DNA of 64,000 nt, taken from Escherichia phage vB_EcoM_TU01. The first letter of the stretch is position 1; each line of letters opens with the position of its first letter. The DNA is taken from sequence record MZ560701, one strand, 5' to 3'. The notes beneath the pieces were generated by a model that was given only the letters and a program-made list of their open reading frames with translations, did no database searches and was not told where the DNA came from. The position numbers and the translations under genes are program-made. Positions 1 to 4,250 of the stretch are shown one piece after another.

Positions 1-432
1 GACACTGAAGGCTTTTGGACGATTGGCATAGGCCATTTAGTAACAAAGAACCCGTCTTTAGCCGTAGCTAAAGCTGAACTTGACAGAATGATCGGACGTA
101 AATGCAACGGTACAATTACCCTTGATGAGGCTGAAAAGCTATTTAATGAAGACGTTGATAAAGCTGTTCGCGGAATCTTGGGTAATGCTAAACTTAAACC
201 GGTATATGATTCTTTAGATGCGGTTCGTCGATGTGCATTGGTCAATATGGTCTTCCAAATGGGTGTAACAGGCGTCGCTGGTTTTACTAATTCTCTTCGT
301 ATGCTTCAACAGAAACGTTGGGATGAAGCGGCAGTAAATCTAGCCCAATCTAAATGGTATCGTCAGACACCTAATCGCGCGAAACGCGTAATCTCAACAT
401 TTAAAACAGGAACTTGGAAAGCGTATATATGA
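1..432 (+). CDS. e: T4-type lysozyme (endolysin), 5'-truncated at window edge
   Basis: Frame 1 from nt 1 gives ...[10 protein letters not shown]...[55 protein letters not shown]..., near-identical to T4 lysozyme as recalled; stop 430-432. Confidence 0.95.
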
Positions 433-710
433 AAACATATAGTGAATTTTTATCAGAATCTATTCTTAACGAAGCTACTGACACATTTGCAACTAAGCTA
501 GGTGCAGCTTTGGTTGAAGCTGAAAGTCTATTAGCACGTATTTCTGAACTTGCTAGTAAGATAGATACTCGCAAATTTGAACGTACCAGTGATATCGTTA
601 AGCTTGAAGCCTTGTTGCGTATGTGCGATAAACCGGAAGAAATCGCTAAGAACGGCTCGCTGATGAAACAACGTCTTGAAAAATATATTTCAGGCGCTTC
701 AGAAAAATAG
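429..710 (+). CDS. internal-protein-like, N-terminal capsid targeting sequence ([10 protein letters not shown])
   Basis: ATG overlaps e stop (ATGA); N-terminus matches T4 internal-protein CTS consensus MKTYQEFIAE. Confidence 0.6.
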
Positions 711-711
711 T

Positions 712-763
712 GTTTACTTCCTCCAAGGACTTTGATACTATACATTCATCAACTACTTGGAGG
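712..763 (+). promoter_or_regulatory. early promoter in stem-loop (PeSL-like): GTTTAC -35, TG-n-TACTAT -10, inverted repeat CCTCCAAG/CTTGGAGG
   Basis: GTTTAC 712-717, TACTAT 736-741 (18-nt spacer); 3' arm carries the denV Shine-Dalgarno. Confidence 0.55.
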
Positions 764-768
764 AAATT

Positions 769-1182
769 ATGACTCGTATCAATTTAACACTTGTTTCTGA
801 ACTGACCGACCAACATCTTATGGCTGAGTATCGTGAATTACCACGCGTATTTGGTGCAGTCCGTAAACATGTTCAAAACGGTAAACGTGTAAAGGATTTT
901 AAAATCTCTCCAACATTTATCTTAGGCACAGGTCACGTAACATTCTTTTACGACAAACTCGAATTTTTACGTTTACGACAAATCGAGCTAATCGCTGAAT
1001 GCTTGAAACGTGGTTTCAAAATCAAGGACACGACTGTCCAGGATATTTCCGACATCCCTGCCGAATTTCGTAATAATTATGTCCCGTCCGAAGCGTCCAT
1101 TGCGATAAGTCAAGCACGCTTAGATGAAAAAATTGCTCAGCGCCCGACTTGGTACAAATACTATGGTAAACCAATTTACTAA
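769..1182 (+). CDS. denV: endonuclease V, pyrimidine-dimer DNA glycosylase
   Basis: [35 protein letters not shown]...[15 protein letters not shown] matches T4 endoV; GGAGG RBS before ATG 769. Confidence 0.95.
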
Positions 1183-1188
1183 GGAAAA

Positions 1189-1305
1189 ATGAAAATGTAT
1201 CAAGAATTTATCACTGAAGCAGATGACAAAGGTCCTAAAGTAGATGTTGACGATATTGGATACGATTTTAACAACTTCGGAATTATTTCTGGCGGTAAAG
1301 CTTAA
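1189..1305 (+). CDS. small internal-protein-like ORF with CTS (MKMYQEFITEA)
   Basis: 38 codons; AAGGA RBS; CTS-like N-terminus; below ORF-track size cutoff. Confidence 0.4.
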   Translation: MKMYQEFITEADDKGPKVDVDDIGYDFNNFGIISGGKA

Positions 1306-1308
1306 ACG

Positions 1309-1338
1309 GTTTACGCTTAAGTGTTAATATGGTATAAT
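1309..1338 (+). promoter_or_regulatory. T4-type early promoter (GTTTAC-18 nt-TATAAT)
   Basis: GTTTAC 1309-1314, TATAAT 1333-1338. Confidence 0.5.
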
Positions 1339-1368
1339 TACTCTATCAAAACAAACAAGGAAACAAAA

Positions 1369-1683
1369 ATGAAAACGTATAAAGAATTTATTGCAGAATC
1401 CGCCAACCAACGCGTTGAAGGTGGTTATATTTGGATTGAACAAGTTGAGCCACCGAGCCGCACTTCTACAGGTAAATGGAAAATTACTGTTGATGGTCCT
1501 GGTGGTAAACGTAGGACTCTTAAAGAAATTAATGGGTACTATGAAGAAGCTCTTTCGGATGCAGGAACTTACATGATGCAAATCATGATTAAAAACCCTG
1601 AAAACCGTTTTGCAGCTAAAGTCTTCCGTCGCATCGGTAATAAACTTTATGACGCATACTCTAAAAACTTCCCTAAAGAATAA
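1369..1683 (+). CDS. internal-protein-like with CTS (MKTYKEFIAE)
   Basis: N-terminal 10 residues match the T4 IP capsid-targeting consensus; own promoter. Confidence 0.6.
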   Translation: MKTYKEFIAESANQRVEGGYIWIEQVEPPSRTSTGKWKITVDGPGGKRRTLKEINGYYEEALSDAGTYMMQIMIKNPENRFAAKVFRRIGNKLYDAYSKNFPKE

Positions 1684-1709
1684 CATAAATTAAAACAATA
1701 GGAACAAAA

Positions 1710-2012
1710 ATGAAAACNTATNAAGAATTTATNACTGAAGCGCGCGTAACTGCGGGTAAATTAGAAGCCGCTATAAATAAAAAGGCTCATTCATTTCATG
1801 ATTTGTCCGATAAAGACCGTAAGAAACTTGTAAGCCTTTATATTGACAAAGAGCGTATTCTCGCTCTTCCTGGCGCTAATGAAGGTAAACAGGCCAAGCC
1901 TTTGAATGCTGTCGAAAAGAAAATTGATAACTTTGCTTCTAAATTCGGTATGTCTATGGACGACCTTCAGCAAGCGGCTATCGAAGCAGCTAAAGTAATT
2001 AAAGGTAAATAA
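1710..2012 (+). CDS. internal-protein-like with CTS (MKxYxEFxTEA; N-containing)
   Basis: CTS-like N-terminus; AGGAAC RBS. Confidence 0.55.
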   Translation: MKXYXEFXTEARVTAGKLEAAINKKAHSFHDLSDKDRKKLVSLYIDKERILALPGANEGKQAKPLNAVEKKIDNFASKFGMSMDDLQQAAIEAAKVIKGK

Positions 2013-2014
2013 CA

Positions 2015-2066
2015 GTTTACTTTCTCCTAAAATTGTGATAGTATATTCATAATTACTTGGAGGGGT
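2015..2066 (+). promoter_or_regulatory. early promoter (GTTTAC / TAGTAT) upstream of denV-fragment
   Basis: GTTTAC 2015-2020, -10 near 2039-2044, GGAGG RBS. Confidence 0.45.
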
Positions 2067-2069
2067 AAA

Positions 2070-2198
2070 ATGACTTATATTAATTTGACTTTAGTATCTG
2101 AACTTGCTGATCAACATTTAATCGCAGAATACCGTGAANTGCCNCGTGTTTTTGGTATAGTTCGTAAACATGTGGCAAAAATATTTACATTCAAATAA
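2070..2198 (+). pseudogene. truncated duplicate of denV 5' end (first ~36 codons, then divergent and stop)
   Basis: [35 protein letters not shown] then AKIFTFK-stop; parallels denV residues 1-36. Confidence 0.6.
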
Positions 2199-2341
2199 CA
2201 TGGGAACAACCTGGACCTCATGATTCTATGAGGGATTCCCGCCAACCTGTAATAAGGTCGAGCCCAAGTGCGGTAATGGGTAAATACAGAAATGGACAAT
2301 TCATGTGCCACGGAATGGCCCCCAACCTTAAGAGAAATAAT

Positions 2342-2881
2342 ATGAGAACATTTTTAACTGGACCTTATCTATCCCTGATGAATGCTTTTACACACCATTC
2401 TGATGCTAGAGTAGAAGAAATTTGTAAGAACGGTTATGTCCCACCATTTGAAGACGTACTCAAGCAGTACTGTACACTTCGTTTAGACGGTGGCAGACAA
2501 TCCGGTAAATCAACTGCAGTAACTAATTTTGCCGCTAATTGGCTGCATGATGGTGGAACAGTTATTGTTCTTTCTAATACTTCAGCTTATTCTAAAATTT
2601 CTGCTGGCAATATTAAAAAAGAATTTTCTCGTTATTCTAGCGATGATATTCGATTCCGTTTATTTACTGATTCTGTCCGTAGTTTTATTGGCAATGAAGG
2701 TTCTAAATTCCGTGGATTAACGCTTTCTCGTATTCTGTATATAATTGACGAGCCTATTAAAGCTCCTGATATGGATAAGATTTACAACATACATATTAAA
2801 ACAGTCCAACACTGTTGCAAAAGCAAATATTGCATCGGCGGTATTGCTCGTCCTCAATTTTTTGTGATTGGAATGCAATGA
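2342..2881 (+). CDS. P-loop NTPase (Walker A GGRQSGKST, Walker B-like ILYIIDE), unknown function
   Basis: Start could be earlier (ORF open from 2228); 2199-2341 compositionally atypical (GC-richer). Confidence 0.5.
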   Translation: MRTFLTGPYLSLMNAFTHHSDARVEEICKNGYVPPFEDVLKQYCTLRLDGGRQSGKSTAVTNFAANWLHDGGTVIVLSNTSAYSKISAGNIKKEFSRYSSDDIRFRLFTDSVRSFIGNEGSKFRGLTLSRILYIIDEPIKAPDMDKIYNIHIKTVQHCCKSKYCIGGIARPQFFVIGMQ

Positions 2882-3186
2882 TGACCACTATTGAAGTTTT
2901 TGAATATTGTTATAATAGCCCAGTATGCAATAAAAGGGCCCTTGTAGAAAATTATGAGATTTACCATTTTAAACCTAAACGATATCGTTTGACTAAAGGT
3001 CCATTCGCAGGTCAGCAGGTTCTTTGTACTGCTCCTAATGCACGGTTGATGACTAGTATTCCGCATTTCAAAATGGAATTTATTGATGGGCCATTTAAGG
3101 GATTAATCACTCAAAGTTTAATGGCGTTTAATTCCGTCCCATTTTTGATTAAAGAAAAAACTTGGATAAATTTATTTTCTAATTGA
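2878..3186 (+). CDS. hypothetical protein
   Basis: ATG overlaps upstream stop (ATGATGA). Confidence 0.4.
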   Translation: MMTTIEVFEYCYNSPVCNKRALVENYEIYHFKPKRYRLTKGPFAGQQVLCTAPNARLMTSIPHFKMEFIDGPFKGLITQSLMAFNSVPFLIKEKTWINLFSN

Positions 3187-3192
3187 GGTTAT

Positions 3193-3555
3193 ATGAAAGC
3201 ATATCAAATTCTTGAAGGTGCACATAAAGGCACTATTTATTTTGAAGACGGTGCTCAAGCCCGGATTATTGTCTCTAAGACTTTTAAAGAAGACGCTATT
3301 GTAGACCCAGAAATTTTCTACGGTTTGAATGCCCGTGAAATTGAAATTGAACATCAACCTAAAGTTAAAATTGAAGGTGGACAACATCTGAACGTTAACG
3401 TTCTGCGTCGTGAAACTCTGGAAGATGCAGTTAAGCATCCGGAAAAATATCCGCAGCTGACCATCCGTGTATCCGGTTATGCAGTTCGCTTTAACTCTCT
3501 GACTCCAGAACAGCAGCGCGACGTTATCGCTCGTACCTTTACTGAGAGTCTATAA
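3193..3555 (+). CDS. autonomous glycyl-radical cofactor (GrcA/YfiD-like)
   Basis: C-terminus [31 protein letters not shown] is the PFL/GrcA glycyl-radical signature (RVSGYAV). Confidence 0.88.
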
Positions 3556-3779
3556 TGGCTAAATTGATTATAGAAGGGTCTGAAGATGTTTTAAAATGTT
3601 TTGCCGCCTGGTTTAGTTGCTCAGGCGAGCAATCATTCATTGAAGCATTTAGAACGGGTGATATTACTGGAAAATATCCGTCAACCGATATCACTGTACG
3701 CGGATATGGTATTAATGAGCCTATCCAATTGGTCGAATACGACCTTGCCACCGATGAGGAAATTCCTTATGTCGATTGA
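3555..3779 (+). CDS. hypothetical protein
   Basis: TAATG overlap with GrcA stop. Confidence 0.45.
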   Translation: MAKLIIEGSEDVLKCFAAWFSCSGEQSFIEAFRTGDITGKYPSTDITVRGYGINEPIQLVEYDLATDEEIPYVD

Positions 3780-4035
3780 AGACATCAAAGGCTACAAGCC
3801 GCATACCGATGATAAAATCGGTAAAGTGAACGCTATTAAAGATGCTGAAGTCCGTCTTGGATTGATGTTTGATGCTCTGATTGAAGAAGCATATATCTTG
3901 AAAGAAAATGAAACAGAGCAACAAACCAAAGAAGATATGGATGCAGTGCAGGCTCTTAAGTATGCTAAGCAACATCTAAAAGAAGCTAGTATGTGGGCGT
4001 GTCGTGCAGTATTTCGACCAGAGGAAAAATACTAA
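3769..4035 (+). CDS. hypothetical protein
   Basis: In-frame ATG overlapping upstream stop; 3601 start of the tracked ORF rejected. Confidence 0.45.
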   Translation: MSIEDIKGYKPHTDDKIGKVNAIKDAEVRLGLMFDALIEEAYILKENETEQQTKEDMDAVQALKYAKQHLKEASMWACRAVFRPEEKY

Positions 4036-4250
4036 TGGCTTCTACTATTACTGGGTTATTGGACTTTCAAGAAAAGGTCAACAAAATTTGTAGTGAATAC
4101 TTAAAGTATCTTGAAGAAGACNTTGAAGATTGTAAGGAAGAAGGCGAAGAAGACTATGCTGACCAGCGTCGTCGCCAAATCGAAGAGATGAGGCATTTCG
4201 CCGATATGGTATCTAAAGAATCTTGGGCTTTAACTCCATTTTATCAATAA
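4035..4250 (+). CDS. hypothetical acidic protein
   Basis: TAATG overlap start. Confidence 0.4.
   Translation: MASTITGLLDFQEKVNKICSEYLKYLEEDXEDCKEEGEEDYADQRRRQIEEMRHFADMVSKESWALTPFYQ

Follow-up and report, generated by a model that had tools for sequence, protein, structure and literature searches.

The first 3.6 kb of a 64 kb stretch of DNA from Escherichia phage vB_EcoM_TU01 (MZ560701; the whole stretch is called the window here) carry an internal-protein (IP) locus in which an intact denV gene, coding for endonuclease V, is followed at a distance by a 42-codon denV fragment with a promoter of its own. This fragment is very probably the decayed, native-position denV of a Tequatrovirus block that was imported into a Mosigvirus backbone, hitch-hiking with the internal-protein gene ipII. 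For comparison with other phages we used the first 3.6 kb as the query, at least 80% of which is covered by 119 phage records. JS09, an RB69-like T-even phage of the genus Mosigvirus, matches the full 3.6 kb in one aligned piece at 97.6% nucleotide (nt) identity. The gene order on the + strand is e, IP-A, denV, IP-B, Ip10, IpII, the denV fragment, a non-coding stretch, vs.8, vs.7 and vs.6/grcA.

The two denV copies differ in kind. The resident gene (769-1182) is full length; its product of 137 amino acids (aa) matches phrog_1183 over residues 1-134 (E=1.6e-62) and Pfam family Pyr_excise (PF03013) at 53.4 bits. It keeps MTRINL...EYRELPR, including the N-terminal Thr2 and Arg3 as well as Arg22, Glu23 and Arg26, residues whose roles we take to be those of the T4 endonuclease V literature. 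The resident protein is 99.3% identical to that of RB69, 91% to that of T4 and 77% to that of the Tequatrovirus JE01, and the gene is 78% identical to T4 denV and 73.5% to JE01 denV at the nt level. The fragment, an open reading frame (ORF) at 2070-2198, matches DenV residues 1-37 and then diverges to a stop (phrog_1183, E=2e-14). It scores 23.7 bits with Pyr_excise, where the cut-off is 23, and falls short of a full-length domain in that it covers only profile positions 1-37 of 139, has Tyr in place of Arg3 and is frameshifted after codon 36. We therefore read it as a pseudogene that would yield no enzyme.

A preliminary description of this DNA had noted the promoter-bearing fragment that diverges into a stop, which our analysis bears out, and had taken it for a second copy of the resident gene, left as a scar by cassette exchange. 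The two regions do align: 712-872 pairs with 2015-2173, promoter included, at ~73-75% identity (blastn E 1e-19 to 1e-24). Duplication of the 5' end of the resident gene within the genome, through cassette exchange in the same lineage, would account for an alignment that runs from the promoter through codon 36 and for the promoter architecture common to both copies, GTTTAC-N18-TAnnAT at 712-741 and 2015-2044. A recent duplicate, however, would be near-identical to its source, whereas the fragment departs far less from the JE01 gene (4 of 109 unambiguous bases differ over the first 111 nt) than from its neighbor, and it is collinear with JE01 ipII and with the 3' end of the donor denV. We consider such a duplication very improbable, and the claim of a second copy of the resident gene falls. 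That of a recombination scar survives in part: the fragment is a recombination-associated remnant, but there is no duplication junction, and what stands at the T4-syntenic site is a pseudogenized foreign denV.

The resemblance to JE01, one of a subset of Tequatroviruses that match far better than T4, extends well beyond the fragment. Positions 1674-2179, comprising ipII, the promoter and the denV 5' end, are 94.3% identical to JE01, for which the figures are 76% in gene e and 73.5% in the resident denV. Relative to T4, 1700-2179 is collinear with ipII, the promoter between the genes and 110 nt from the start of denV at 86% identity, and homology resumes at 2202, the first base after the T4 denV stop codon. 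The missing part can be placed exactly. Positions 2070-2179 cover denV from codon 1 to the second base of codon 37, the junction lies within GGCAAA at 2174-2179, and 2180-2200 hold the final 21 nt of the donor gene, out of frame. With slashes at the breaks, JE01 reads ...CATGTGGCAAA / TGGTAAG...TACGGCAAA / AATATTTACATT and the window ...CATGTGGCAAAAATATTTACATT; written across denV, JE01 has ...AAACATGTGGCAAA TGGTAAG...(denV)...TATTACGGCAAA AATATTTACATTTAAATAAC and the window ...AAACATGTGGCAAAAATATTTACATTCAAATAAC. One 292-nt deletion between two GGCAAA repeats thus separates the fragment from an intact JE01-type denV, and the resulting frameshift leads to the new stop at 2196-2198. At least 60 Tequatrovirus records cover a 141-nt junction query fully, in two pieces that span 433 nt (141 + 292). 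A 22-nt "filler" at the junction, suggested by the T4 alignment, was rejected as such; it is the genuine 3' end of a JE01-type denV, which differs from that of T4.

The surroundings of the fragment show where the imported piece begins and ends. RB69 is 96-98% identical to the window over 1-1740 and 2242-3600, and between these segments, at 1741-2241, nothing in RB69 matches except its own denV at 74%; a different gene, ORF123c, occupies that place. In bins of 50 nt, identity to RB69 is at least 96% up to ~1700, 10-54% over 1750-2250 and 90-100% from 2300, and identity to JE01 is 94-100% over 1750-2300 and lower or absent on either side. Three-way alignments put the left switch in the first ~14 nt of the ipII ORF, ATGAAAACATATCA, the start of its capsid-targeting sequence (CTS), with RB69-like sequence before and JE01-like sequence after. 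The right switch falls within the ~18-nt invariant CATGTGCCACGGAATGG of the non-coding element, at ~2304-2320. Each crossover patch is shorter than ~20 nt, and T4 recombination can use small homology patches (discussed in PMC2839356). The imported block holds ipII after its first few codons, the promoter, the denV remnant and a type-A non-coding element, and measures ~590 nt now or ~880 nt with denV intact. Comparison of the locus across JS09, RB69, T4, JE01, HX01 and other related phages thus finds a mosaic with a JE01-like fragment.

The same identities bear on the converse history, in which denV at the T4-syntenic site is ancestral and decayed in place and the copy at 769-1182 is the newcomer. 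The fragment does lie where T4 and JE01 have denV, between ipII and the element and vs.8, and several Mosigvirus lineages hold remnants there. Yet the remnant and its flanks are 94-100% identical to Tequatrovirus sequence, against ~76-78% for vertically inherited backbone genes, and the resident denV shows backbone-level divergence from T4 denV (78% nt). RB69 has no remnant at the site, and the identity of the block, above 95% over most of its length, refutes decay in place, to which we leave only a slight chance.

Import of the fragment within a Tequatrovirus block suggests the following course of events. A JE01-type segment carrying ipII, an early promoter, denV and the element would have replaced an RB69-type ORF123c with its element, by exchange through two short patches: the CTS coding start on the left and CATGTGCCACGGAATGG on the right. 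The recombinant would then have held two denV genes, of which the imported copy was redundant. This copy would have been inactivated by the 292-nt deletion between the 6-nt GGCAAA repeats and would then have drifted, with changes including R3Y. The substitutions fit such drift. Relative to JE01, the window fragment has R3Y, a two-base change at what is presumably a DNA-binding residue, and one synonymous change. The JS09 fragment also has E11K, L12F, R22C and V31I, giving seven nt changes in non-synonymous codons versus three synonymous ones, and the intact denV of the Tequatrovirus G9062 differs from JE01 over the same codons by zero non-synonymous and four synonymous changes. By this pattern the fragment is judged to be a decaying pseudogene.

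Other phages show that the imported denV was lost more than once. The GGCAAA junction (allele A) was found by blastn only in JS09 (two records), pEK20, ESCO47 and AV110, which match at 97% or more over the full locus or carry the same "endonuclease V N-glysidase" fragment annotation; the junction ORF is annotated as a coding sequence (CDS) in JS09, pEK20 and ESCO47. Across this junction the window has no exact 28-nt word in common with any phage record of the collection. In allele B, found in HX01, PHB12 and W143, a JE01-type ipII and promoter are followed by a deletion between GACTCG repeats, ATGACTCG / ATGAAAAAAT, that keeps three 5' codons and ~75 nt of the denV 3' end. Because this deletion differs from that of allele A, the imported denV has lost its function on at least two separate occasions, in both cases through a microhomology deletion. 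W143 has ipIII plus ipII upstream of its truncated denV, so the original import may have been larger, or several imports may have occurred. A possible third state is seen in two IMG/VR contigs (L030, 5750-5918, and L032, 6333-6501), with an ipIII-like gene, about the last 16 nt of a JE01-type denV (ATTTACATTCAAATAA) and the element. Two intact denV genes in one phage were found nowhere among 50,697 records: a tblastn search with the C-terminal 94 aa of DenV, the part that is absent from the allele A fragment, gave 958 records and 958 places.

Part of the fragment may nevertheless have been kept for a purpose, either because its promoter and leader drive an operon of the element and vs.8 or because the 42-aa peptide has a role. 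In neither of the independent alleles has the deletion touched the promoter, Shine-Dalgarno sequence or ATG, and both promoter hexamers are identical to those of JE01, with one difference in the spacer. Against a retained function, allele B leaves an ORF of three codons and hence no conserved peptide, the substitutions in the 42-codon ORF are mostly non-synonymous, and no more than about 16 nt from the end of denV is left in L030 and L032. In many related phages, moreover, the element directly follows an upstream stop codon with no promoter between, so that a dedicated promoter is not generally needed. Retention for function is rather unlikely in our judgment. The surviving promoter and ribosome-binding site probably still drive early transcription into the element and vs.8.

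Several points weigh against import followed by decay or against the biology attached to it. The order of events, import before deletion, is reconstructed, and the intermediate with two intact denV genes is absent from the sampled records. The direction of transfer, probably from Tequatrovirus to Mosigvirus, is read from synteny and from the observation that Mosigvirus backbones hold truncated copies only. RB69 has been reported unable to recombine with T4-type phages (PMC6024577), so exchange of this kind would be rare or limited to short patches. Five ambiguous bases lie within the locus (1718, 1722, 1733, 2139 and 2144). No virion proteomics of Mosigvirus internal proteins turned up in the searchable literature, and the packaging, cleavage and injection of the four proteins in this phage are deduced by analogy. 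On the matter of recombination, the near-identical ipII block indicates that natural exchange at this locus does occur, and the close similarity of RB69 and T4 IPI (PMC6024577) points the same way. The ambiguous bases are what would speak for a sequencing or assembly artefact in a low-quality record with 322 such bases; the identical junction in four phages that were sequenced independently and have point differences of their own, and the unbroken match to JS09 make the chance of one negligible.

The stretch between the fragment and vs.8 is itself unusual. Identity to T4 and JE01 is 96-100% over 2200-2300, against 78-84% for the neighboring genes, and the phrog_1488 alignment places the element outside vs.8. 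It begins with a stem P1 (2202-2206 with 2236-2240), which encloses a hairpin P2 (2216-2221 with 2228-2233), and continues into an invariant 19-mer core, ACCTGTAATAAGGTCGAGC, at 2245-2263. The window has a single copy of this core, which is also present in 29 IMG/VR contigs and in 27 metagenome contigs, with no exact match in bacterial and archaeal species genomes. A covariance model finds 65 copies, one per locus, in related and unrelated phages: several T4-like genera (Tequatro-, Mosig- and Jiaoda-type), rV5-like phages and other uncultured phages. Loci that carry it include L003 (T4), L004 (RB69), L010, L012, L033, L053 and L069. In rV5-like phages the element lies between two sigma70-type promoters upstream of a tRNA cluster, in L053 it lies inside a tRNA cluster, and in L069 it is ~40 nt downstream of one.

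Pairing in P1 is maintained while its sequence changes. The distance from the end of the 5-bp stem to the core is always 4-5 nt, and the stem sequence varies by element type: GGGAA/TTCCC, GGGAG/CTCCC, AAAGG/CCTTT, AAAGC/GCTTT and AAAGA/TCTTT, with further variants GGGG/CCCC, GGAAC/GTTCC, GAATGT/ACATTC and GTGTAT/ATACAC. P2 covaries as well (CCTCAT/ATGAGG, CCTTAT/ATAAGG, CACAT/ATGTG, CTACG/CGTAG and a paired one-base deletion, CTA/TAG). In a MAFFT alignment each of the five P1 pairs varies at both positions, and 96% of cells are paired versus 52-55% when the partner is slid by one column; in the covariance-model alignment 95.7% are paired versus 56-59% in slid controls, and none of 500 shuffles reaches the observed score. 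Two P1 stem bases are mismatched in L030. Other signals are weaker. Single-sequence folding gave no thermodynamic signal on either strand (z = 0.44, 0.09), RNAalifold gave a weak result on a plain MAFFT alignment, where the P1 5' strand is misaligned between element types, the core hairpin is invariant, and much of the covariation lies between a few clades.

Comparison with known RNAs gave no identity for the element. Rfam 15 had no match at E<=1 (window 1-4000 and three other element loci), ARAGORN reported neither a tRNA nor a tmRNA, and a comparison to rnaC and rnaD of T4 was likewise negative. In the literature the core sequence was nowhere found, and a search for vs.8 with non-coding RNA returned irrelevant papers only. 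To judge by its covariation and distribution, the element is a credible candidate for a small RNA or mRNA element of phages that has so far escaped description, and its invariant part appears to have served as the right-hand crossover site. A wider proposal, about which we are more doubtful than confident, is that these copies form an undescribed structured small-RNA family of large lytic phages, with a covarying closing stem, an inner hairpin and a ~40-nt core (ACCUGUAAUAAGGUCGAGC...GCGGUAAnGG), that the promoter of the dead denV acts as its promoter here, and that the core provides the right-hand homology patch for the movement of IP cassettes between genera that do not recombine elsewhere.

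The genes around the two denV copies code for putative capsid-targeted proteins. The preliminary description had four CTS-bearing ORFs flanking an intact denV, and this holds: the CTS pattern MK.Y.EF..E has exactly four matches when the window is translated in six frames, every one of them within this locus, with none in 200 shuffles, and the denV that they flank codes for the full 137 aa. Residues 8-10, the L/I-x-E motif of the gp21 prohead protease, read LSE, ITE and IAE in three ORFs; in the fourth (1710-2012) they are xTE, where x is an ambiguous call and JS09 has ITE. The position of an IP locus between e and denV/vs.8 is syntenic in T4, RB69, JS09 and JE01. Two of the four belong to named families, IP-A to phrog_3499 ("internal head protein") and IpII to phrog_7857 ("internal virion protein"). 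Ip10 and IP-B fall in PHROGs of unknown function and match IP families at the CTS level only, so that they qualify as predicted internal proteins by CTS and position. We accordingly assign all four, from sequence, as CTS-bearing internal-protein genes. Solved structures searched with IP-A, Ip10 and IpII held no relative.

The locus is a turnover zone for small genes, as three cases show. IP-B corresponds to RB69 ORF125c (86 aa) minus an in-frame 144 nt between CCTAAA repeats, and with 28 residues left after CTS removal this gene may be decaying. RB69 ORF124c (L004, 3848-4120) has one extra G (GCAGCTGAAAG versus GCAGCTAAAG in the window) that leads to a frameshift and truncation, and Ip10 is intact at 104 aa in the window and in JS09, where the annotation of JS09_058 notes similarity to Ip10 of phage Pol. 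RB69 ORF127 begins with a degenerate CTS, MKTYMNFYQNLSLNEA (MKTYMNFYQN), that of IP-A in the window being canonical, and packaging of the RB69 protein may have been lost. An e-proximal IP locus may also stand empty: G9062 (L006, 1897-2867) has no IP gene between e and denV.

By analogy with T4, the four proteins would act at the onset of infection. The CTS, the first ten residues ending in L/I-x-E, would target each protein into the prohead core, where the prohead protease would cut after Glu10, and the mature proteins would be packaged with the DNA, injected, and serve as first-response inhibitors of host restriction. Bair and Black are said to have worked on T4 internal-protein anti-restriction in 2007. 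In T4, Ip1, Ip2 and Ip3 act against three different GmrSD type IV restriction enzymes, one each, and Ip2 blocks the GmrSD of ECOR21 (PMC12373910); IPIII is required on ECOR17 (PMC9391042), and the CTS and IPI* of T4 have been described (PMC3012670). The anti-defense role first proposed for these genes agrees with the published work on T4 Ip1-3, and the ORF at 1710-2012 is an Ip2 orthologue. It is 96% identical to IpII of JE01 and 91% to that of T4, with three ambiguous residues counted as mismatches, which makes it the best candidate for a known function, inhibition of a GmrSD-type type IV enzyme of the ECOR21 type. JS09-like phages are predicted to carry arabinosyl-hydroxymethylcytosine (arabinosyl-hmC) rather than glucosyl-hmC DNA (PMC6024577), and the restriction enzymes relevant to such phages may differ from those of T4 Ip1-3.

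The features of the locus are collected in Table 1. The stop codon of e overlaps the ATG of IP-A. For vs.8, phrog_1488 aligns to residues 41-217 of a long ORF at 2228-2881, whose nearest preceding ATG is codon 39 (2342). The long ORF, which corresponds to the T4 annotation, was considered as the true vs.8 and rejected: the profile does not begin until residue 41, and the part upstream of it contains indels in RB69. T4 vs.8 (L003, 1754-2413) is annotated with 219 aa and starts inside the non-coding element; this N-terminal extension is probably an annotation artefact and the real start the downstream ATG (window 2342). The early-promoter pattern GTTTAC-N17-19-TAnnAT has 19 matches in the window, 18 of them on the + strand, where 0.85 are expected by chance. 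Matches elsewhere (e.g. 4255, 12794, 45904 and 58802) together form a map of probable early promoters. The late-promoter consensus TATAAATA is not enriched in the window and has no match upstream of the IP genes. Beyond the locus, the window has an unrelated acidic ORF of 85 aa (3993-4250) where HX01 (L007, 4439-4738) has a 99-aa ORF between vs.4 and regB, for which "pyrimidine dimer DNA glycosylase" is a RefSeq name only. The ambiguous bases of the window include a run from ~23711, and the record is of low quality or a consensus.

Table 1. Annotated features at the start of the window
Feature	Position	Strand	Basis
gene e (lysozyme), 3' part	1..432	+	98% identity to RB69 e, 77.5% to T4 e; JS09 annotation
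IP-A, 93-aa internal head protein, RB69 ORF127 orthologue	429..710	+	phrog_3499 E=1.2e-46; 92.5% identity to RB69 ORF127
early-type promoter-like site 5' of resident denV	712..741	+	GTTTAC-N18-TAnnAT pattern
resident denV, intact, Mosigvirus type (endonuclease V, pyrimidine-dimer glycosylase)	769..1182	+	phrog_1183, PF03013
IP-B, 38 aa, CTS MKMYQEFITE	1189..1305	+	phrog_35655 E=5.6e-28; nt alignment to RB69
early-type promoter-like site 5' of Ip10	1309..1338	+	TTTACG-17-TATAAT with TG, 10/12 matches
Ip10-type internal protein, 104 aa, CTS MKTYKEFIAE	1369..1683	+	phrog_3966 E=4.5e-34; JS09_058 annotation
IpII (Ip2) orthologue, 100 aa, CTS MKTYxEFxTE	1710..2012	+	phrog_7857 "internal virion protein" E=3.1e-52
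imported Tequatrovirus-type block	1724..2310	+	50-nt identity bins and three-way alignments
early-type promoter-like site of imported denV	2015..2044	+	pattern match; comparison with JE01
denV', predicted pseudogene, 42 aa	2070..2198	+	one 292-nt deletion relative to JE01 denV
conserved non-coding element	2202..2320	+	65 copies; P1 covariation; no Rfam match
vs.8 (P-loop protein), Mosigvirus backbone resumes	2342..2881	+	phrog_1488; JS09 and RB69 annotations

Internal proteins encounter host defenses ahead of all other phage molecules, and their loci are hot spots of exchange. The present locus is a base-resolved example of a T4-type ipII moved into an RB69-type genome, a group that had been regarded as isolated in recombination and as differing in the sugar that modifies its DNA, with the passenger denV lost twice independently through microhomology deletion. 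It represents ordinary, well-documented cassette swapping and no new kind of system. For annotation, "endonuclease V" CDSs of the JS09_060 type are better marked as pseudogenes. IP-A, Ip10 and Ip2 are candidate anti-restriction proteins in what would be an arabinosyl-hmC phage, and the adjacent RNA-like element is the item that most deserves specialist attention.

The closest known relatives are JS09 (JS09_054-061), pEK20, ESCO47 and AV110, which share the gene order e, IP, denV, small IP, Ip10, IpII, denV fragment, vs.8. JS09 has the same GGCAAA junction and differs at 3 of 45 bases in the junction region; its fragment is annotated as a gene (CDS JS09_060, "endonuclease V N-glysidase"), whereas we read it as a pseudogene. 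JS09_055-060 are annotated in GenBank with notes that point to Ip10 and a DenV entry of phage Pol, both from the work of Repoila et al. 1994. The Tequatrovirus arrangement in T4 and JE01, e-ipIII-ipII-denV-vs.8, is collinear with the window from ipII to the element (94-100% identical to JE01, 86% to T4) and has the same CTS and early-promoter layout. Unlike the window, Tequatroviruses carry only one denV, intact and at this site, with none between the IP genes; they have ipIII, and their backbone genes are only ~76-85% identical to those here. RB69, with e-ORF127-denV-ORF125c-ORF124c-ORF123c-vs.8, shares the backbone (96-98%), the position of the resident denV and orthologues of IP-A, IP-B and Ip10, but has ORF123c and a type-B element in place of ipII, denV' and the type-A element. 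Its full-length ORF125c (86 aa), frameshifted ORF124c and degenerate ORF127 CTS also set it apart. Of the T4 proteins Ip1, Ip2 and Ip3, which have the same CTS, Ip2 is a close orthologue of the ORF at 1710-2012; IP-A, IP-B and Ip10 have no similarity to Ip1-3 beyond the CTS.

Polymorphic T-even internal-protein loci are reportedly also the subject of Comeau and colleagues in 2007. In such loci unrelated CTS genes swap within two fixed loci via short conserved flanks, together with early promoters, and the same is seen here. IP-locus polymorphism, a conserved CTS and promoter-associated shuffling were described by Repoila et al. 1994, as far as later accounts of that work relate (PMC3012670, PMC2839356), and modular shuffling of the promoter-stem-loop (PeSL) type is a related system (PMC2839356, PMC4122927). 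The window has early-type promoters at 712, 1309 and 2015, no + strand terminator-like stem-loop was found in 300-2500, and the crossovers lie at a CTS start and in the element rather than at promoters. The anchors appear to be CTS start codons and a conserved non-coding element, not a promoter-stem-loop. The present analysis adds where the fragment came from, the exact sites of the deletion and of the crossovers, a second deletion that arose independently, and the finding of no genome with two intact denV genes. Some of these points may already stand in Repoila et al. 1994, whose data include, for example, phage Pol with Ip10 and a partial DenV (CAA84453-55). Relative to known IP loci, what distinguishes this one is that a non-IP passenger, denV, was transferred together with the internal-protein gene and then decayed.

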